Assembly (NCBI GenBank): GCA_016929895.1
Contig: JAFGHW010000001.1
Location: 135 to 64,134, forward strand
Origin: Candidatus Woesearchaeota archaeon
Lineage (GTDB): Archaea; Nanobdellota; Nanobdellia; Woesearchaeales; ARS49
Direction: 5' to 3'
Length of the DNA stretch: 64,000 nt
Under the pieces are notes generated by a model. It searched no databases. It had not been told where the DNA came from and saw only the letters and a program-made list of their open reading frames with translations. The translations under genes and the position numbers were made by a program. This document shows, in pieces, positions 5,111 through 57,792 of the stretch; position 1 is the stretch's first letter, and each line of letters opens with the position of its first letter.

Positions 5111-5203
5111 CGGGTCCAGAGGGCTTCGATCCCCCGACCACTCGGTTTCCTCCAAAACAAATTGCTAAGAGCCGAGTGCTCTACCAGACTGAGCTATGGA
5201 CCC
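5111..5203 (-). tRNA. tRNA-Lys (anticodon CTT) with a ~19-nt intron at the canonical 37/38 position.
   Basis: Minus-strand fold reads acceptor GGGTCCA/TGGACCC, D-arm GCTC..GAGC, anticodon stem CTCGG/CCGAG, loop CTCTTA(A). The intron lies between the loop and the 3' stem half. T-stem is GGGGG/CCCTC. Confidence 0.75.
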
Positions 5204-12004: not shown

Positions 12005-12140
12005 TTTTATTTATCAATACACCAGCACTTGGGTACTGGCGTGAAGCCTCTTTTGCTTCTCAACCTCGCTACGCTCGGGTCGCTTTGTGTACTTTAATCG
12101 ATTCGCCGGCAAGACACACACACACAAGTGCCCTTTGCGC

Positions 12141-13094
12141 TCATTTTATTAACGTCTTAATAACATCATCAACATCCATATTCTGCCTTTCAGCTTCAAA
12201 ACTCAATATAAGCCTGTGCCTTAAAACAGGATAAGCCATTGCATTAACATCCTGTTTTGAAACAAACTTGCGGCCTTCTAACAACGCCCTTGCTTTTGCA
12301 GCCAAAACCAAGCCAATACTCGCTCTGGGAGACGCTCCATACTCAATCAAATTCTTTTTATTCCTTGTAGAAGTCACCAGATTAACAGCATACTTCTTGA
12401 TATCAGAAGAAATCGGGACCTGCCTAACAATCTGCTGCAAAAACAATAATGAATTTTTGTTAAGAACAGATTTAAGCTTGATAGGCTTTTGCTCAACTGC
12501 ATACCGATTTACAATCTCTAATTCTTCTTCTGGATTAGGATACTCTGTTTTTATTTTCAGCAAAAAACGGTCTGTCTGAGCTTCTGGCAAAGGATATGTT
12601 CCTTCCTGCTCAATAGGATTCTGAGTAGCTAAAACAAAAAAAGGCTGTTCTAGTTCAAAAGTAGAATTGCCAACAGTAACCTGCTTCTCCTGCATTGCCT
12701 CTAACAAAGCAGACTGAGTCTTAGGAGTAGCCCTGTTAATCTCGTCAGCTAAAATAATATTTGCAAAAATAGGGCCTGGCTGAAACTTAAAATTCCTTTT
12801 GCCGCTAGAACTATCCTCAATAATATAAGTTCCGGTAATATCAGAAGGCATAAGGTCAGGAGTATTCTGAATCCTGGAAAACTTCAAATCCATTAACTGC
12901 GCCACAGTACGCACAGCCAAAGTCTTTGCCAAACCAGGATAACCCTCTAGCAATGCGTGAGAATTAGTAAGCAAAGAAACAAGAATCTGCTTTACAACCT
13001 CCTGCTGGCCAACAATGACTTTTCCAATCTCATGCGTGATATGATCAAATGTTTTTTTTGTTTCTTCTAATTTCATTTTAATACCTCCTAACAA
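12141..13094 (-). CDS. MoxR-family AAA+ ATPase. The likely start is Met7 (13076).
   Basis: Walker A LLEGYPGLAKT, Walker B ILADEINRATP, VLATQNP sensor and MoxR C-terminal region. Confidence 0.85.
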   Translation of the reverse strand: MLGGIKMKLEETKKTFDHITHEIGKVIVGQQEVVKQILVSLLTNSHALLEGYPGLAKTLAVRTVAQLMDLKFSRIQNTPDLMPSDITGTYIIEDSSSGKRNFKFQPGPIFANIILADEINRATPKTQSALLEAMQEKQVTVGNSTFELEQPFFVLATQNPIEQEGTYPLPEAQTDRFLLKIKTEYPNPEEELEIVNRYAVEQKPIKLKSVLNKNSLLFLQQIVRQVPISSDIKKYAVNLVTSTRNKKNLIEYGASPRASIGLVLAAKARALLEGRKFVSKQDVNAMAYPVLRHRLILSFEAERQNMDVDDVIKTLIK

Positions 13095-19859: not shown

Positions 19860-20004
19860 ATGTTCTGTAAAATTTAAAAGGTATATAAAAGTATCTTATG
19901 GTTGGAAATAAGATGATTATAATAATATACAACAATCTGTGGTTAATAAGACTATACGAGTTACAGTAGCTTTATAAATAACCATAATTTATATTAGTGT
20001 TAAG

Positions 20005-20466
20005 ATGAAGAATTTACTATATCGCGCCGGGGCTACAGTATTGGCATTGACAGCGAGTTGTATTAGTCCGAATCCCGAGTATGAAGCATTGCATAGGGAT
20101 CTTAATGAACTTGAAGTGAAAGTTAATGCACGTCGCCGTTCGGTTGATGAATTGGAAAAAATGAGTTCTGAACTAACTAAAGAACGCAATCAAATATTAG
20201 AATTAAGTGCACTTGTTGAACAGAAACTGGAAGATCTTTCATTAATGGCTACAAAGAGAATTACAGGCCGTGGAAAACTACTGTCTTGTATTATTGATGA
20301 TATATCTAAAAAATTAGAAGACGATAAACTTACTCATGAACAAAGAGAAGAACTTAACAAAGACTATTTGAAATTTATGTCACTATACAAAGAAACCATG
20401 GATTATCTTATACAATTTATAGATTCGAAAAATGAATTAATAGATTCGCAAAATTCTAAAAAATAA
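20005..20466 (+). CDS. Hypothetical coiled-coil protein with a lipoprotein-like N-terminus (LALTASC). The 5' part is GC-richer than its surroundings.
   Basis: ORF track. No recognisable family. Confidence 0.35.
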   Translation: MKNLLYRAGATVLALTASCISPNPEYEALHRDLNELEVKVNARRRSVDELEKMSSELTKERNQILELSALVEQKLEDLSLMATKRITGRGKLLSCIIDDISKKLEDDKLTHEQREELNKDYLKFMSLYKETMDYLIQFIDSKNELIDSQNSKK

Positions 20467-20574
20467 ATTTAGATAAACAAGATTTACTTTAAATTCCCTC
20501 CTCTTCTAAAAACATCACAAATAAGTTCTTCCTAATATTTTTCTGAGCAATCTTTCTACTATTAATTTTTCAGC

Positions 20575-20684
20575 GCCGACGGCGGGATATTCGGCTCCCA
20601 CCTTGACGCTCGAACCCGCAAAACGCTAGTTAGCGTCAACGCAATCTTAAGTTGCGCGCGGCTACCAATTTCGCCACCTCGGCT
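20575..20684 (-). tRNA. Candidate tRNA-Leu (anticodon TAA) with a ~21-nt non-canonical intron in the T-loop.
   Basis: Minus-strand fold reads acceptor GCCGAGG, D-arm GCGA-AATTGGTAG-CCGC (Leu-type), anticodon stem CGCAA/TTGCG, loop CTTAAGA. Long variable arm ACGCT-AACT-AGCGT. T-stem GCGGG/CCCGC encloses TTCGA[21 nt]AT. One G:G mismatch in the acceptor stem. Confidence 0.5.
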
Positions 20685-20957
20685 TTGCTGAAAACCACAA
20701 AGTTTTTATACTTCATGAACATTATTTATTATGCTGGTTAGTGTTAATGTAATTTTAAACTGTGTGCGTTAATCAAATTTCGCCGCACTATTTTTCTTTT
20801 TTTTATAACATTTTACTTCTTAATAACACTTATTTAACAAAATTCAGAATTCTTCCGAATAGATCAGAAATAATACTGATTTAACCAAACAAAATTAAAA
20901 ATAAAAGAAAAAAAACAAAATAAATACGAAAAAATCGGAAAAAAAGAAATAAAAAAA

Positions 20958-33740: not shown

Positions 33741-34262
33741 TTATGCTCTTGTCATTAATGTTCCACATTTAGGACATTTTCTTTGCACACAAGGAATTCC
33801 AATCTTATGAGGAACCCTATTACCGCATTTAGGACATTTGCATTCACCAGAAGGACCTGCGGCAAATCCGCCCATTCTTCCGCGGCCTGCGCCAGGACCT
33901 ATTCCCCTTCTCAAACCTCTGCCAGCGCCCATTCCACGGCCCATGCCCGGGCCCATGCCTCTTCTTGGAGCAACCATCTTATAAACACCTCCTTCAATTC
34001 TTATAGACTTACCGTTAACAAGAGCATCAGCCAGTTTTTTTCTTGCAGACAATAAAATTCTGTGCAAAGTTGGCTGAGAAATATTCATTTTCTTGGCAGC
34101 ATTTTTCTGCTCAGTCTCTTCTAAATCACAAAGCCTAATTGCTTCAAATTCATCCACAGTAAGAATAACTTCCTGCAGTTCAACCAAACGAACTCCTGAA
34201 GGCTTAAAAAAAGTAACCTCAGGATTAAATCTAACTCTTCTAAATAATCTAGGCCTGGGCAT
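33741..34262 (-). CDS. DUF134 (UPF0251) sigma-70-region-4-like HTH protein, fused to a Gly/Arg-rich linker and a C-terminal double CxxC zinc ribbon.
   Basis: MPRPRLFRRVRFNPEVTFFKP...DEFEAIRLCDLE...MNISQPTLHRIL matches the DUF134 signature. CKCPKCG...CPKCG at the C-terminus. Confidence 0.6.
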   Translation of the reverse strand: MPRPRLFRRVRFNPEVTFFKPSGVRLVELQEVILTVDEFEAIRLCDLEETEQKNAAKKMNISQPTLHRILLSARKKLADALVNGKSIRIEGGVYKMVAPRRGMGPGMGRGMGAGRGLRRGIGPGAGRGRMGGFAAGPSGECKCPKCGNRVPHKIGIPCVQRKCPKCGTLMTRA

Positions 34263-35486: not shown

Positions 35487-35860
35487 TATTTCAACTCTTT
35501 TAGTCTTTTCTTAATTTCATCAAGTTCTTTATTTAAGAGTTTCTGTTCTTGTTCTATTGTTTTGGCTTCCTGCTCAAGGGCAAATTTTGCTTCTTCTTTT
35601 GTTCTAGGTTCAGAATAATCTGACTCAGCATAGCCAGATTCATCATATACTGGAGCAAAAGCCATTCTTCTGCCAAAACCTCTGCCAAATCCACGACCAA
35701 AACCTCTGCCTCTGCCAAAACCACGGCCACCTCTAGGCATTCCTCTGCCAAAGCCAGGGCTATTAAAACCTGCGCAAAAACCAAGTCCTCTTCCAGTCAT
35801 AGGTCCAAAACCATCAGGACCAGTTTCATCTCCATAAGGCATTTTATTTTCCTCCCTCAA
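35486..35860 (-). CDS. DUF5320-like protein (Gly/Arg/Phe-rich repeats + C-terminal coiled coil).
   Basis: GRGLGFCAGFNSPGFGRGMPRGGRGFGRGRGFGRGFGRGFGR followed by coiled-coil KEEAKFALEQEAKTIEQEQKLLNKELDEIKKRLKEL. Confidence 0.55.
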   Translation of the reverse strand: MREENKMPYGDETGPDGFGPMTGRGLGFCAGFNSPGFGRGMPRGGRGFGRGRGFGRGFGRGFGRRMAFAPVYDESGYAESDYSEPRTKEEAKFALEQEAKTIEQEQKLLNKELDEIKKRLKELK

Positions 35861-52194: not shown

Positions 52195-55100
52195 ATGAAA
52201 ACAAAAAAAACAATTGCAATAATGATGATGGTTTTAATAGTGATGATGCCAATTGTTTATTCAGAACCTTCTGAAACATTTGAATTATTTGCAACAGTGC
52301 CGACTGCAACAAAAGACAACACAGTAACAATAACAGGAACAACCAAAGCAAACATTGATGTAGTTGTAAGCGTAAACAAAGCGCGTGTTGCTGAAATAAT
52401 AAGCGATTCTAATGGAGAATTCTCAACATCACCAATTACTCTTGTTCAAGAAAACAATGACATAACCATAAAAGCAACAGATTCCCAAGGAAACATCAGA
52501 ACATTAACCTACAATATAAAACTAGACAACAGTCCTCCAAAAGTTACTTACATAAACATACCAACAGGAAGCCAAACAAGAACAATAACCATCACTGGAA
52601 CAACAAATGAACCAGTAACAATTGACTGGAAAACAAGCAATTTAACAATCTACAAATCAGTTCAAGCAAAGGATACTTTTAATTTTAATATTGACTTAGA
52701 AGACGGATTAAACAAACTCGAACTAATAGCAAAAGACTCGGCAGGAAATCAAGACAAGCAAGAATTTGAAATAATGCACGATGTAGTTGCACCAAGCTTT
52801 TTATTAACAAACCTTGACGGACTAGACAATTGCTATCTGGATTTCCCGGCAATAAAAGGAAAAAAAGTCGACATAACAGGACAATTAAATGAAAAAGCAA
52901 CAATATTTGTATATGTAAACCATGAATCAAACCCAAGCAAAGTAAGAACAACAGATGAAACAGGATATTTCAGAATAAAAGATGTTCTGCTTGAAGGAAC
53001 ACTAAAAATAAAAACAAGCCCAACACAAACAACAATAGAAACAGGAAACCAATACGAAAATCACATCCGACTTGTTGCAAAAGACCTTGCAGGAAATGAA
53101 GCCCAAATAGAAAAAACAATCACCTGCGAAACATGCGGAGGGGGCGCAGCAGGATATTCATTAAACACAGCATCAGCACTACAAGCAATGACACCGACAG
53201 AATTATTGCCAAGCCTTTTAATAACAGGCATAGAAACAATTACAATACCATTTAACCTAAGCTATGTCGGACTAAATGAAGCAGCAATACGGAGCATACA
53301 AGTAACACCAGTAATAATGGGGCCGGAATATGAAAAAGACTATGATAATGACAAAATAACTGCATCAGTCCTGCCTTTATACTCCAGAGACAAGCAAACA
53401 GCAACAGGAATCATACAAATAAAAATAAACAAATTCGACCCATTAGGAAGTTCTGAAAAAGATGCAACACACTACAGAAGAGAATACAATGTATCAAGGC
53501 ACAGATATGGAAAATGCGCATTCCAGCCAGAACTAGGAAAAGACTTAGATTACGGATGCATGAGATTCTTTCTAATGATGGAAGTACAATACCAAGAAAC
53601 AACTGAACAAACTTATCTAGACCCAAATGTCCAGCAAACAGGACTAAAAAGAGAAAACAAAATACAAAAAATCTGTTTTTCAAACATAGAAGTATCAATA
53701 GCCAAAGTAACAGAACAGTATATTCCTAAAAAAATGGTCAAAAAATGGATAAAAAACATAGACCATATCCTAAAAAAAGCAGAACCAGTAAAAGAATATC
53801 TTGACACTGCAACAGAATATGCAACTTACACATGCCTGGCAAGCGCAGGAACACTTGCACTTGCAAGACTGGCAGAACTAACAACGTGCCAAATATCAGA
53901 ATGGATTGCCTCTATTGGAGAAGCCAGCTGGCACTCAGAAATAGCAGAAGCAGGAATATGCGAACTAGTATATCATGAAGATTTTGATAAAAAGGGCAGT
54001 GAAAAAGGAATCAAAGGAAATGAAAGAGCAAGAAACTCATGCATAGCCTGCTCTGAAATGATAGGACTAAGAAAATGGATAGAATATGAAGTAATGCACC
54101 GTGCATGCGACAGAGTCGGGTGTCCTGCAGCCAAAACATTCAAATCATACATTCAAGACAAAGCAGGAAAAATAAACGACATAACACCATACATAAAAAC
54201 TCATTTTGACAAAGCAAAAGCACAAGGAAAAGAAACAGAAAGCAAAATGCAGACAATACTAACAGAACACGGCGCGCCAATGACACAACAAACAAATGTT
54301 GCCAACAAGAGAGTATTTGTAGGAAATGACTGCGGATTTACAACAACACCAAAATACATCAGCACAACATACAGCGACATTTCTGGAAAAGGAATAAAAA
54401 CATTATACGAATACACAAAAGCCCAAGGACCAAGAGAATACTGCACAAAATATTTGCGGGCAGCACAGCCAGAATGCTGCGGCATAAATTATGCGCGCGA
54501 ATGGAGCACAGCATGCGGAATAGGACAAGTAAGCGGAGAAAATGTTTTCTTACTAGACACATTTGACGAACTAAAAGAAAGCACATGCTATGCAGCAAGA
54601 CAAGCAGGAGACCCGTCAGCAGCAGGAACAGGAATAGACTGCAGCGGAGGAATGCTATGGAATGCAATGGCAGGATTTTGCGAGCCAAACACAGGGGCTG
54701 CAGTAGACGAAGTAATCCACACAGGAATGAATTACGAACCAAGAAAACAAGACTCAGAAGACAACAGAGTTTATGTATTTGTAACACCAGAAATAAATGC
54801 AAAAAAAGAAACAGAAGACTATAAAATATACCGCGGATATGCTGTCAATAAACTAAAATACGAAGCCAACAAAGAAGAACACAAAGACGCAAAAAGATTA
54901 ACACAATCATTATACAAAGTTTATGACAGTGAAAACCTTGCGCATATTTTCAAAAACGAAAAAACTAGTGACAAACAAAAACAAGCTGAACTGAAAACAG
55001 CACTATGCGAAAAAAATAAAAAACAAGATGTTGAAAAATGCGAGAATATAGAAAGAACATACAACAGAATAAAAGAAATAATCGGTTCAGAAGACAACAA

Positions 55101-57792
55101 AGAATACATTGTAAGAGCAGACACAGGACTATTACGCTCAATACAATGCATCTGCTTTCCAGCTGTAAAAGCATGGGTAGACCAATGGCTTAAAATCCTG
55201 ACAATGCTGCGCAACTGCCTGGCAACAGTAGAAATAGGAAAAGGAGATGCAGGAGTATGCGATGATTTCTTATCACAAGTAGTATGCGACAGAATATATG
55301 AATTACTAAAATGCTTTTCAAGCAAAATCGGATGGTCAGGAGCAGGAAAAAGAATAACAGGAGACTTTGGAATAGGAAGCATAATAGGAATACTAACCAA
55401 TACTGCATCAGAAATGAGCAAAACAATGGAATCAAGATATGGCGAAACAAGCATGTGGACAGCATTATTCAATGAACGCGACCTTGTACACGGAGTATGC
55501 ATGTGGGCATTCACAGGAAAATATGACCTGCAAATAGAACAAATAGTCCAGCACACAACAGAAGAAATCGCAATAGAAAGCCAGCCATTCATAGGAGAAT
55601 GCAAACGATACTTCAGAGGATATTCACCAACAACAGTGCCAACAGGACTAACAACATGGGCATATGAATGCGGAATGGCAATGGTAGCCGGAGCAAATAT
55701 AACCTACCAAATAAAACTACAATGCAGCAATGACTTCAGATGCTCTGAAAAAGACGGATTTAGAAACAATGAATGCGACTGCGTAGGAAAAGACCGGCCG
55801 CAAATACACATAGCAGAAAGAGGACCAATGAACAAAGGAGACATGTTCAACAAGAAATTCACCTGGCCAATACAAGCAGGACAATCAGGCTCAAAATACA
55901 GGTATGACACAGCAATACTATACTATGAATGGATAGACCCAAAAACAAATGAAAAAAGATCAAACCAAGCAACAAGATACATAGGACAAGCAGGAGCAGA
56001 ACCATTTGGATTCTGCGCATTTGACCCAGTCACAGTCGCATTTAGATGCCAGTTTGGAAAACAAGAAGGAAGCATAAAAATCAAAGACATAGACCCAGAC
56101 TACAAAGACAGCGAGCATCCAACAAAGAAAACAAAAGTATTCTTCATGGACCAGCCATTCACATTTGAAGCAAAAATCAAACAAAAAATGCCAGACGACC
56201 CGGCAGAACAACAGGAAGCAAAAAAATTCCTATACTACAAAATAATTAATCACGCAGGAAGCACTGTAAAAGAAATAAAACCAGAAGAAGACACTGCAGT
56301 CTGGGTATTTGAATCAAACGGAGACTACACAGAAGAAATAGAAATAGAACTTCCAGAAGATGACATAAAAAAATATCTAGACCAAACACCAGGAGAAATA
56401 GCAATGGCACAAATAGAAACAGACGGAACAACAAAAACAGCAGAACCAACAGATTACATATCATCATACACAGTATTCAAAAGAGAAAAAAAAGAAAAAG
56501 GCAAAGAAGAAATCAAAAGCATCTCAGCAATAATAGAAATGACCTCAGAAGAAATAGCAATATACAACACAAGAAGCAAAACAGCAAGCACGTTCTACAA
56601 AGGAGACATAATGCTAGCAAAACAACCAAATGAAGAAGGCGAATTACATGTTCCATCAGAAGTAAACCAATACCAAATAAAAGTGACAATAGAAAAACTT
56701 CCAGAACCAGGACAAACAGTACGCATATACGTTCCTGCACAAACCTCTTTAGTGCCGACTCCATTAAAAACCAAAGACCCGGCAGACTGGAGAGCAATAT
56801 TCACTTTATACGATGCAAACAAATACGGAGAAACAACAGACCAAGTAACAATAAGCCCTGACGGGCAAAAACAAATAAAAGAAGTCACTTTCAAAGTAGC
56901 AGGCATGACAGAAGAAGAAGGCGGAAAATTTGTAGCAGAAGAGAAAAAAGAAATATCCAAACCAACACCTAGTAAATACATGTTAATACAACCTCCATAT
57001 AAATTTTATTCAGAAGATAGTGGCAAGACATGGACAGTATATAAAACTCAGCCTGATTTAACAGTTGACGTAGTTGATAAAGATTTAGATATTCAAAAGG
57101 TTGAAACAAAATATGACGTAACAGAAAAAGAACTGCTAATACCCATGGTTAATGTTGAAATAATTTCTCCTCAAAAATCAATAATTGGACTGAGATTGCC
57201 TATTATTAATACAGGATTAAAAGTCACATTTGAAGCAGAGGCAACAGGAGGAACAGGAACCGGATACACATATGAATGGCTCATCTCAGGAAAAACATAT
57301 ACCGGCAATAAATTCAGTATTGATTATTCAACTAAAGACGACTTTAAAGAAGGACAAGGAGAACAAGCACACATTATTGCCACAGATAGCGCAGGAAATG
57401 GCAATACTGAAACTATAACATTTTATCCGCGAACTCGTAATTCGCATGTTATTTTATTAAATGATGGCACTAGTTTTTTAGAACAAGATAAACTAGATTT
57501 TGAATATATAGATAATGAATGGCAATTGCTTACTCAGAGTTGGAGAATGGAAGAAGCATACTCCGGCGGTATTGATCCGTGGTGGAACAAGATTTTTGAA
57601 GAAATGCGAAAAGTAAAAAATGATTATTCCCAAGGAGTGGAAGTCCTTGTCAAAGCAACTAATAAAGAATGGGGAACAAGACGAGGCATTGATCCATATT
57701 TAGTTGTTATGAGATCTAAATATCAAGAGTTAACTCATAAGTGTTGTGATATTGATGCAGAAGAAGTTAAACAGCAAGCCAGAGAAAATTAA
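52195..57792 (+). CDS. Giant (1865 aa) secreted protein K: signal peptide, tandem Ig-like domains, the shared Cys-rich module (CICFPAVKAWVDQWLKILTMLRNC...) and a long C-terminal beta-rich region.
   Basis: Signal peptide MKTKKTIAIMMMVLIVMMPIVYS. N-terminal Ig-like repeats (TVTITGTT...; TITITGTT...). Single uninterrupted ORF. Confidence 0.6.
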   Translation: MKTKKTIAIMMMVLIVMMPIVYSEPSETFELFATVPTATKDNTVTITGTTKANIDVVVSVNKARVAEIISDSNGEFSTSPITLVQENNDITIKATDSQGNIRTLTYNIKLDNSPPKVTYINIPTGSQTRTITITGTTNEPVTIDWKTSNLTIYKSVQAKDTFNFNIDLEDGLNKLELIAKDSAGNQDKQEFEIMHDVVAPSFLLTNLDGLDNCYLDFPAIKGKKVDITGQLNEKATIFVYVNHESNPSKVRTTDETGYFRIKDVLLEGTLKIKTSPTQTTIETGNQYENHIRLVAKDLAGNEAQIEKTITCETCGGGAAGYSLNTASALQAMTPTELLPSLLITGIETITIPFNLSYVGLNEAAIRSIQVTPVIMGPEYEKDYDNDKITASVLPLYSRDKQTATGIIQIKINKFDPLGSSEKDATHYRREYNVSRHRYGKCAFQPELGKDLDYGCMRFFLMMEVQYQETTEQTYLDPNVQQTGLKRENKIQKICFSNIEVSIAKVTEQYIPKKMVKKWIKNIDHILKKAEPVKEYLDTATEYATYTCLASAGTLALARLAELTTCQISEWIASIGEASWHSEIAEAGICELVYHEDFDKKGSEKGIKGNERARNSCIACSEMIGLRKWIEYEVMHRACDRVGCPAAKTFKSYIQDKAGKINDITPYIKTHFDKAKAQGKETESKMQTILTEHGAPMTQQTNVANKRVFVGNDCGFTTTPKYISTTYSDISGKGIKTLYEYTKAQGPREYCTKYLRAAQPECCGINYAREWSTACGIGQVSGENVFLLDTFDELKESTCYAARQAGDPSAAGTGIDCSGGMLWNAMAGFCEPNTGAAVDEVIHTGMNYEPRKQDSEDNRVYVFVTPEINAKKETEDYKIYRGYAVNKLKYEANKEEHKDAKRLTQSLYKVYDSENLAHIFKNEKTSDKQKQAELKTALCEKNKKQDVEKCENIERTYNRIKEIIGSEDNKEYIVRADTGLLRSIQCICFPAVKAWVDQWLKILTMLRNCLATVEIGKGDAGVCDDFLSQVVCDRIYELLKCFSSKIGWSGAGKRITGDFGIGSIIGILTNTASEMSKTMESRYGETSMWTALFNERDLVHGVCMWAFTGKYDLQIEQIVQHTTEEIAIESQPFIGECKRYFRGYSPTTVPTGLTTWAYECGMAMVAGANITYQIKLQCSNDFRCSEKDGFRNNECDCVGKDRPQIHIAERGPMNKGDMFNKKFTWPIQAGQSGSKYRYDTAILYYEWIDPKTNEKRSNQATRYIGQAGAEPFGFCAFDPVTVAFRCQFGKQEGSIKIKDIDPDYKDSEHPTKKTKVFFMDQPFTFEAKIKQKMPDDPAEQQEAKKFLYYKIINHAGSTVKEIKPEEDTAVWVFESNGDYTEEIEIELPEDDIKKYLDQTPGEIAMAQIETDGTTKTAEPTDYISSYTVFKREKKEKGKEEIKSISAIIEMTSEEIAIYNTRSKTASTFYKGDIMLAKQPNEEGELHVPSEVNQYQIKVTIEKLPEPGQTVRIYVPAQTSLVPTPLKTKDPADWRAIFTLYDANKYGETTDQVTISPDGQKQIKEVTFKVAGMTEEEGGKFVAEEKKEISKPTPSKYMLIQPPYKFYSEDSGKTWTVYKTQPDLTVDVVDKDLDIQKVETKYDVTEKELLIPMVNVEIISPQKSIIGLRLPIINTGLKVTFEAEATGGTGTGYTYEWLISGKTYTGNKFSIDYSTKDDFKEGQGEQAHIIATDSAGNGNTETITFYPRTRNSHVILLNDGTSFLEQDKLDFEYIDNEWQLLTQSWRMEEAYSGGIDPWWNKIFEEMRKVKNDYSQGVEVLVKATNKEWGTRRGIDPYLVVMRSKYQELTHKCCDIDAEEVKQQAREN

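Follow-up and report, generated by a model that had tools for sequence, protein, structure and literature searches.

Non-canonical bulge-helix-bulge (BHB) introns in the tRNA genes of Thermoproteales and other Crenarchaeota were reportedly described by Marck & Grosjean in 2003 and by Sugahara et al. in 2008. In a canonical archaeal pre-tRNA the anticodon stem acts as the outer helix, the intron pairs with a run of four exon bases lying just ahead of the final two, and the two splice sites each lie two bases 3' of this central helix, inside a 3-nt bulge (PMC4090602). Position 59/60, in the T-loop, is a recurrent non-canonical site for archaeal tRNA introns (PMC4090602), and relaxed motifs of the hBH/BHL type are cleaved by splicing endonucleases (EndA) of broad specificity (PMC3239211). 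In ARMAN-2, a DPANN archaeon, the host endonuclease cleaves in vitro a pre-tRNA-Cys whose 59/60 site is occupied by an hBH intron of 13 nt, and tRNA-Pro carries introns at 53/54 and 59/60 (PMC3239211). Moreover, it has been reported that DPANN lineages have an EndA of the alpha4 type to which an L3 loop is added, that many of their tRNA genes are disrupted, and that the tRNA sets predicted for them are incomplete, one Woesearchaeota genome being among the four new DPANN genomes analysed (PMC5829648). Here we describe a tRNA-Leu(UAA) gene, interrupted by 21 nt within its T-loop, on the minus strand of a 64,000-nt stretch of a Candidatus Woesearchaeota genome (contig JAFGHW010000001.1 of assembly GCA_016929895.1; hereafter the window). 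On the basis of its sequence, we consider it probable that the locus is a transcribed gene with a protein-spliced (EndA-type) intron at 59/60, and that it gives rise to a functional, spliced tRNA.

The minus-strand tRNA combines a leucine anticodon with the long variable arm of class II, and its D-, anticodon-, variable and T-stems are fully paired (Table 1). The features listed in the original prediction, which was made from the letters of the window, are all present in the sequence: a Leu-type tRNA with this D-arm, a CTTAAGA loop and a long variable arm, T-stem halves GCGGG and CCCGC that stand 28 nt apart, and one G:G mismatch in the acceptor stem, which we identify as G6·G67. Its coordinates, 20575-20684, give the right locus but miss both ends (20574 and 20683) by one base because the discriminator sits at 20574. 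After splicing the tRNA is 89 nt long, and the GC content of the exons is 61%. A covariance model built from 36 bacterial tRNA-Leu(UAA) genes has its sole match in the 64 kb at this locus, where all 82 of its positions are covered (61.2 bits, E 3.5e-13), and the alignment carries a single 21-nt insertion, located in the T-loop and placed after TTCGAG when the model is run with filters off. A complete class-II tRNA is therefore present at 20683..20574, far above chance. ARAGORN (default, intron and low-threshold modes), one of the tRNA finders suggested for checking the prediction, makes no call on the unedited locus, and Rfam, which was also run, has no match to it in gathering mode or at E<=10, because of the T-loop insert; ARAGORN does, however, call tRNA-Leu(taa) upon every in-silico deletion of 19-23 nt within the T-loop. 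An identical sequence is found in an independent Logan assembly of the same sample, so the locus is no assembly artefact. The GC-rich surround of ~300 nt that had been claimed for 20467-20760 is not borne out, the island being confined to ~20555-20700, that is, to the tRNA itself, while 20467-20550 and 20710-20760 are 17-30% GC. Similarly, the 5' part of the adjacent open reading frame (ORF) 20005..20466 is GC-rich, as had been said, but for ~60 nt only (20020-20079), and these code for an Ala/Gly-rich signal peptide of the lipoprotein type.

When the canonical BHB rule is moved to position 59/60, it predicts that the T-stem is the outer helix, that T54-G57 pair with intron bases -6 to -3, and that the 3' bulge is made up of the last two intron bases and U60, and all three are found here. 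Intron bases -6 to -3 are CGAA (20593-20590), a perfect complement of UUCG (54-57), and the resulting helix is contiguous with the 5-bp T-stem; the 3' bulge is UAU (3 nt), formed by the last two intron bases, UA, and U60. Every one of the 13 structures that RNAfold lists within 3 kcal/mol for the T-arm with its insert retains these three elements, namely the T-stem, the TTCG/CGAA helix and the UAU bulge. The chance of finding CGAA in the required register is ~0.003, or ~0.02 if G·U pairs are allowed. At the 5' splice site, which follows A58 and G59 and precedes a C, the minimum-energy fold has a bulge of 1 nt, and the predicted motif belongs to the relaxed hBH/BHL class. The central claim of the original prediction, that a Leu(UAA) tRNA is here interrupted in its T-loop by a non-canonical intron of archaeal type, is thus supported by BHB-type geometry as well as by the archaeal host, and the BHB-type motif that it called for can form round the proposed intron, albeit in relaxed form. 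Of the two positions it offered, 59/60 agrees with the BHB register, whereas an intron at 58/59 is ruled out because the T-stem would be lost as outer helix. Removal of 21 nt restores a 7-nt T-loop, as expected, but the loop is TTCGAGT and not TTCGAAT; the former is the commonest loop among 56 related tRNA-Leu(UAA) genes (35/56), and the latter occurs in one of them. As to where the insert came from, tandem duplication finds little support, the preceding 21 nt matching at 4/21 in-register positions. The palindrome TTTCAGCGCTGAAA was likewise rejected as a repeated element, there being no repeats of it in the window.

Table 1. Positions of the tRNA-Leu(UAA) gene, its parts and flanks, and of related tRNA features in the window.
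Feature	Position	Strand	Remarks and basis
Whole tRNA-Leu(UAA) gene, intron and G73 included	20574..20683	(-)	110 nt; covariance model, ARAGORN after in-silico splicing
5' exon, Sprinzl 1-59	20609..20683	(-)	acceptor 5' strand through T-loop bases TTCGAG; sequence and model alignment
Predicted 21-nt intron at 59/60	20588..20608	(-)	CGTCAAGGTGGGAGCCGAATA; RNAfold and filters-off model alignment
3' exon	20574..20587	(-)	U60, CCCGC, CGTCGGC, discriminator G73; sequence
Acceptor 5' strand	20683-20677	(-)	GCCGAGG; then U8, G9
D-arm	20674-20658	(-)	GCG-A-AATTGGTAG-C-CGC
Anticodon arm		(-)	CGCAA-CTTAAGA-TTGCG; anticodon TAA at 20649-20647
Variable region		(-)	TTG-ACGCT-AACT-AGCGT-TTT; 5-bp stem ACGCT/AGCGT, 4-nt loop
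T-stem strands	20619-20615 and 20586-20582	(-)	GCGGG and CCCGC; spacing 28 nt instead of 7
Acceptor 3' strand		(-)	CGTCGGC; single mismatch G67 vs G6
Predicted exon junction after intron removal			...GGGUUCGAG/UCCCGC...
Leader (-11..-4)	20687..20694	(-)	TTTTCAGC; exact complement of trailer; 3-nt AAA bulge 20686-20684 before G1
Trailer, beginning at discriminator G73	20567..20574	(-)	GCTGAAAA; pairs with leader in minimum-energy fold of flanked pre-tRNA
Decayed partial tRNA-Leu copy, gene positions 9-59	20733..20784	(-)	D-arm, anticodon arm, most of variable arm; local alignment
tRNA-Lys(CUU) with 19-nt anticodon-loop intron	5111-5203	(-)	only Rfam-recognised tRNA in the window, 52.6 bits

If the locus is spliced as we propose, the T-stem GCGGG/CCCGC of the precursor would extend into the 4-bp helix UUCG(T54-G57)/CGAA, with the last two intron bases and U60 bulging out on the 3' side and with A58, G59 and the first intron base forming the matching 5' site, which would be bulged only in part and would thus give the relaxed hBH form. 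On either strand, the cut of the archaeal splicing endonuclease would then fall two bases 3' of this 4-bp helix, between G59 and C and between A and U60. An RtcB-type ligase would join the exons to give the 7-nt T-loop UUCGAGU, and CCA would be added behind G73. The host is an archaeon (Woesearchaeota, DPANN), as the intron reading requires, and the proteins encoded in the window include proteasome alpha, SBDS, the exosome proteins Rrp4, Rrp41 and Rrp42, L31e, S19e and Cbf5, the last of which NCBI assigns to Candidatus Woesearchaeota archaeon. There is no EndA or RtcB gene within the 64-kb window, and we attribute a splicing enzyme to this host because of the DPANN literature (PMC5829648).

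Support for splicing in this organism is provided by the second tRNA gene of the window, that for tRNA-Lys(CUU), since its anticodon-loop intron suggests that the organism uses protein-dependent tRNA splicing. Its minimum-energy fold is equally relaxed, with a 4-bp helix beside the stem and with bulges of 1 nt on the 5' side and 4 nt on the 3' side, and the enzyme that processes it should therefore accept the tRNA-Leu precursor too. This gene is itself missed by ARAGORN in default mode and is mislabelled as Ser(cga) in intron mode, and its T-loop reads AUCGAAG (A54). In addition, TTA is the commonest leucine codon in 16 ORFs of the window (254/801), and such heavy use would make a tRNA-Leu(UAA) indispensable to the organism. 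In an alignment of Cbf5 with 59 homologues, its TTA codons fall at positions of Leu or other hydrophobic residues. Reassignment of UUA to serine, an idea prompted by G73 together with the long variable arm, was rejected as the main decoding on the strength of this alignment, in which Ser is marginal at most.

The body of the tRNA appears to resemble bacterial tRNA-Leu more than the archaeal type. We scanned 185,579 species genomes (GTDB) for the signature AATTGGTAG-N-CGC-N6-CTTAAGA, which combines the D-arm and the anticodon loop and which, being exact, would miss archaeal genes with an anticodon-loop intron. The 85 loci obtained are all bacterial (Candidate Phyla Radiation (CPR)/Patescibacteria, Mycoplasma, Proteobacteria) save for two short contigs binned as archaeal, both of which have ordinary bacterial-type Leu tRNAs, one encoding CCA. 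The D-arm of the present gene has the form GGCG-N-AAUUGGUAG-N-CGC with the G18G19 placement of bacterial tRNA-Leu, and the closest bacterial tRNA is 79% identical. Horizontal acquisition of the tRNA body, followed by gain of the intron, is plausible from these similarities. A73 is an identity element for LeuRS in Bacteria, Archaea and Eukarya. Because the discriminator is G73, we infer leucine charging from the anticodon and the body only.

The gene shares with an orphan ORF a lineage-specific insertion of ~1.1 kb (19860-20957), located between a large surface protein gene and cbf5. In two relatives the same flanking genes are separated by a spacer of 71-78 nt (L091, 2174-2250; L161, 9930-10000), and in a third (L090) an unrelated 150-aa ORF occupies the site, which is therefore an indel hotspot. 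The orphan ORF of the present insertion (ORF153, 20005-20466, lipoprotein-like) has no homologues and is unrelated to the ORF of L090. Moreover, the intact gene is preceded, 49 nt upstream, by a decayed partial copy of the tRNA with the same orientation, whose alignment score of 28 exceeds the highest value reached in 2000 shuffles (22). The anticodon stem of the copy is disrupted, its differences from the intact gene are mostly G/C to A/T, and its match to the covariance model is weak (3 bits); its presence suggests that the locus was duplicated in tandem or rearranged long ago. That this unselected neighbour has drifted towards AT and lost its anticodon stem, while the intact copy has done neither, argues that the intact copy is under selection.

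In the syntenic DNA round Cbf5 from eight related loci of Woesearchaeota (~90 kb), no tRNA of any kind occurs, and the same ~90 kb have no match to the covariance model and none to any Rfam family at the gathering score. A scan of JGI metagenomes with a pattern specific for the A13/C22 combination gave two ordinary bacterial tRNAs only. The pattern 'GGGTTCGAG..CGAANNTCCC' has 61 matches in IMG/VR, two of which have complementary outer stem bases without being T-arms that carry an insert; a further scan of IMG/VR, with a D-arm/anticodon pattern, gave 3 loci that were left uninspected. The spliced tRNA has no close BLAST match in phage and plasmid collections.

The sequences that flank the tRNA are also unusual. 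Leader and trailer form a helix of 8 bp, and flank helices of at least 8 bp are seen at 17 of 20000 random window positions (~1e-3) and in 2 of 201 control tRNA genes; the tRNA-Lys gene is without a leader-trailer helix. Alternatively, a weak 3-4-3 BHB can be drawn from these bases, with a CAGC/GCUG helix, an AAA bulge on each strand and the acceptor stem as one outer helix, but the other outer helix then consists of two A:U pairs only, and the plain 8-bp helix is more stable. To our knowledge, no ordinary archaeal tRNA is processed via a terminal leader/trailer BHB. The helix may act as a signal for processing, may be what an insertion into a palindrome left behind, or may have arisen by chance. 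A more elaborate scenario, which we regard as improbable, would have a captured bacterial-type tRNA-Leu(UAA) become 'archaealised': having gained its 59/60 BHB intron after transfer, it would carry the terminal BHB-like motif CAGC-AAA/GCUG-AAA, at which the endonuclease would excise, and possibly circularise, the entire pre-tRNA out of a longer transcript, and G73 would mark an unusual identity or route of maturation.

Several observations weigh against a working, spliced gene. The 5' splice site has no clean 3-nt bulge, so that the strict 3-4-3 hBHBh' motif with two 3-nt bulges is not formed, and a strict 3-4-3 fold with a 2-bp inner helix has an energy of -7.4 kcal/mol against -15.0 kcal/mol for the minimum-energy fold. 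At the level of the whole precursor, the variable region pairs with the intron in a competing 8-bp helix (TTGACGCT/AGCGTCAA) that dominates the minimum-energy fold, at -50.5 kcal/mol; a cloverleaf that keeps the hBH motif reaches -31.7 kcal/mol. The discriminator is a G, in contrast to the A73 of all 56 related bacterial-type tRNAs, and the G6·G67 mismatch occurs where C67 is present in all five relatives that share the 5' strand GCCGAGG. The D-arm found matches in bacteria only, apart from the two contigs binned as archaeal. Pairing of the leader with the trailer is uncommon among RNase P substrates, and there is no oligo-T tract within ~55 nt downstream of the tRNA. Finally, relatives whose Cbf5 is 69-81% identical have no tRNA at this site, and no orthologue was found in the syntenic relatives, the species genomes, the JGI metagenomes or IMG/VR.

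The main rival to the working gene is a well-preserved relic, an explanation that we consider unlikely although it has more in its favor than the others. The locus would then be a non-functional, decaying tRNA-Leu(UAA) of bacterial type that was acquired horizontally, perhaps borne by a mobile element together with the orphan ORF, the insert would be an ordinary indel, and the BHB-like pairing would be fortuitous. The bacterial signature of the D-arm and anticodon loop (with the same two short contigs aside), the G73 and G6·G67 anomalies, the absence of the gene from the syntenic site of close relatives, the adjoining decayed copy and orphan ORF, and the lack of a nearby oligo-T terminator are all in keeping with such a history. 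Moreover, TTCGAA is palindromic, so that partial duplication of the T-loop alone would yield a CGAA able to pair with TTCG. The traits of a pseudogene, that is, broken stems and drift towards genomic composition, are nevertheless not seen: there is one mismatch, at 6·67, no internal stem contains a mispair, and GC stands at 61% in the exons as against ~35% in the genome, whereas true decay is visible in the neighbouring copy. In addition, the CGAA helix and the 3-nt bulge lie in the only register from which a 7-nt loop would emerge with the sequence commonest among the related genes, and an identity of 79% to the nearest bacterial tRNA speaks against a fresh transfer.

The duplicated sequences at the locus might instead be the remnant of an integration site, left when an integrase-type element recombined in the T-loop or 5' part of the tRNA gene, and T-loops are classic integrase crossover sites. 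We consider this very unlikely. The same-orientation copy of gene positions 9-59 lying 49 nt upstream, the ~1.1-kb insertion relative to relatives and the 8-bp inverted repeat that brackets the tRNA could be read in this way, as could a likeness within the gene between 'AGCGT..GCGGG..TTCGA' and 'AGCGT..GTGGG..CCGAA'. This last likeness is weak, however (~12/20 positions by eye), att duplications flank a whole element and do not lie 49 nt apart or within a loop, and the insertion has no integrase or other mobile-element gene, its sole ORF being the lipoprotein-like orphan. An integration scar would in any case be compatible with the intact copy being a working, spliced gene. The possibility to which we give the least credence is that a functional tRNA retains the insert, its 21 nt forming an additional hairpin. 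The T-loop fold leaves positions 59-60 projecting outward, and in the T-loop motifs of other RNAs this is the one place that can tolerate extra bases; the insert lies exactly between A58 and the 3' strand of the T-stem, and it can form a small stem-loop of its own. Yet the stablest local fold pairs the insert with T54-G57, which would destroy the T54-A58 and G18/G19-Psi55/C56 contacts, and we know of no tRNA with a 21-nt T-loop expansion of this kind. The geometry fits, by contrast, a splice motif for which there is experimental precedent (PMC3239211).

Other parts of the window were also considered as hidden tRNAs. The GC-rich islands at 33815-34003 and 35659-35794, which are the most GC-rich of the window (up to 69%), were rejected because they code for RGG-rich (Arg/Gly/Met-rich) low-complexity protein segments, the former being the tail of a DUF134 protein and the latter an unannotated reading frame. 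An intergenic island of 53-57% GC at 12012-12143, between a DUF58/VWA gene and a MoxR ATPase gene, holds a (GT)7 run and a stable hairpin, CCAGCACTTGGGTACTGG, with a folding z-score of -2.0. It was checked as a hidden tRNA and has no Rfam match; it may be an unannotated small RNA. Finally, 36483-59162 (+) is a long run of large same-strand ORFs of up to 1865 aa, eleven of which were scanned without any Pfam match, the largest (52195-57792) lying outside that scan. This run may be a lineage-specific block of surface or mobile genes.

Gaps in the tRNA set have been reported for DPANN genomes (PMC5829648), and a tRNA-Leu(UAA) with a T-loop intron may fill such an apparent gap in the present organism, given that standard finders miss the gene. 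The locus would also add a class-II tRNA of Woesearchaeota to the known carriers of T-loop introns at 59/60. Should its body indeed be of bacterial origin, it would be a dated case of an archaeal intron gained after the arrival of the gene, and would bear on the spread of BHB introns. The phenomenon of a 59/60 intron is itself already known, if seldom detected, and the bacterial-type body, G73 and the terminal helix are leads rather than findings.

The closest likeness is to ARMAN-2, which shares with the present case a DPANN host, the 59/60 site in the T-loop, the T-stem as outer helix and a 5' splice site without a clean bulge (PMC3239211), and whose 59/60 intron genes likewise escape default tRNA finders. 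It differs in that its tRNA-Cys intron is 13 nt long, compared to 21 nt in a class-II Leu tRNA here, in belonging to another phylum, and in that cleavage was tested there and is predicted here from sequence. The endonuclease of ARMAN-2 is of the epsilon2 type, whereas alpha4 enzymes with the L3 loop are reported for diverse DPANN lineages, a Woesearchaeota genome being among those analysed. In the Thermoproteales and other Crenarchaeota, whose introns range from 20/21 to 59/60, the 4-bp central helix is likewise moved off the anticodon arm, and relaxed hBH and HBh' variants occur (PMC4090602). Those hosts are thermophiles with an (alpha-beta)2 EndA and often several introns per gene, in contrast to the single intron and the mesophile-like, AT-rich DPANN genome of the present case. 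Pairing of leader and trailer beside a mature domain is also known from split and permuted tRNAs and from the BHB processing of archaeal rRNA (Randau 2005; Soma 2007, 2014, PMC3978253), but the present gene is neither split nor permuted. Bacterial tRNA-Leu(UAA) genes have a near-identical D-arm, GGCG-N-AATTGGTAG-N-CGC, the same CTTAAGA loop and a T-arm, GCGGGTTCGAGTCCCGC, that is also found here after splicing, and 5 of the 56 share the acceptor strand GCCGAGG (L046, L057, L075, L084 and one more). None of the 56 has a T-loop insert and all have A73, whereas the present gene resides in an archaeon and has both the insert and G73; its combination of A13 and C22 is found in none of the 85 GTDB loci. 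A classic group I intron stands right behind CTTAAGA in many proteobacterial tRNA-Leu(UAA) genes (L025, L030, L031, L035, L043, L049, L050, L061, L062, L065, L078). Bacteria thus interrupt tRNA-Leu(UAA) by a group I intron in the anticodon loop, unlike the gene described here, in which the insert lies in the T-loop.

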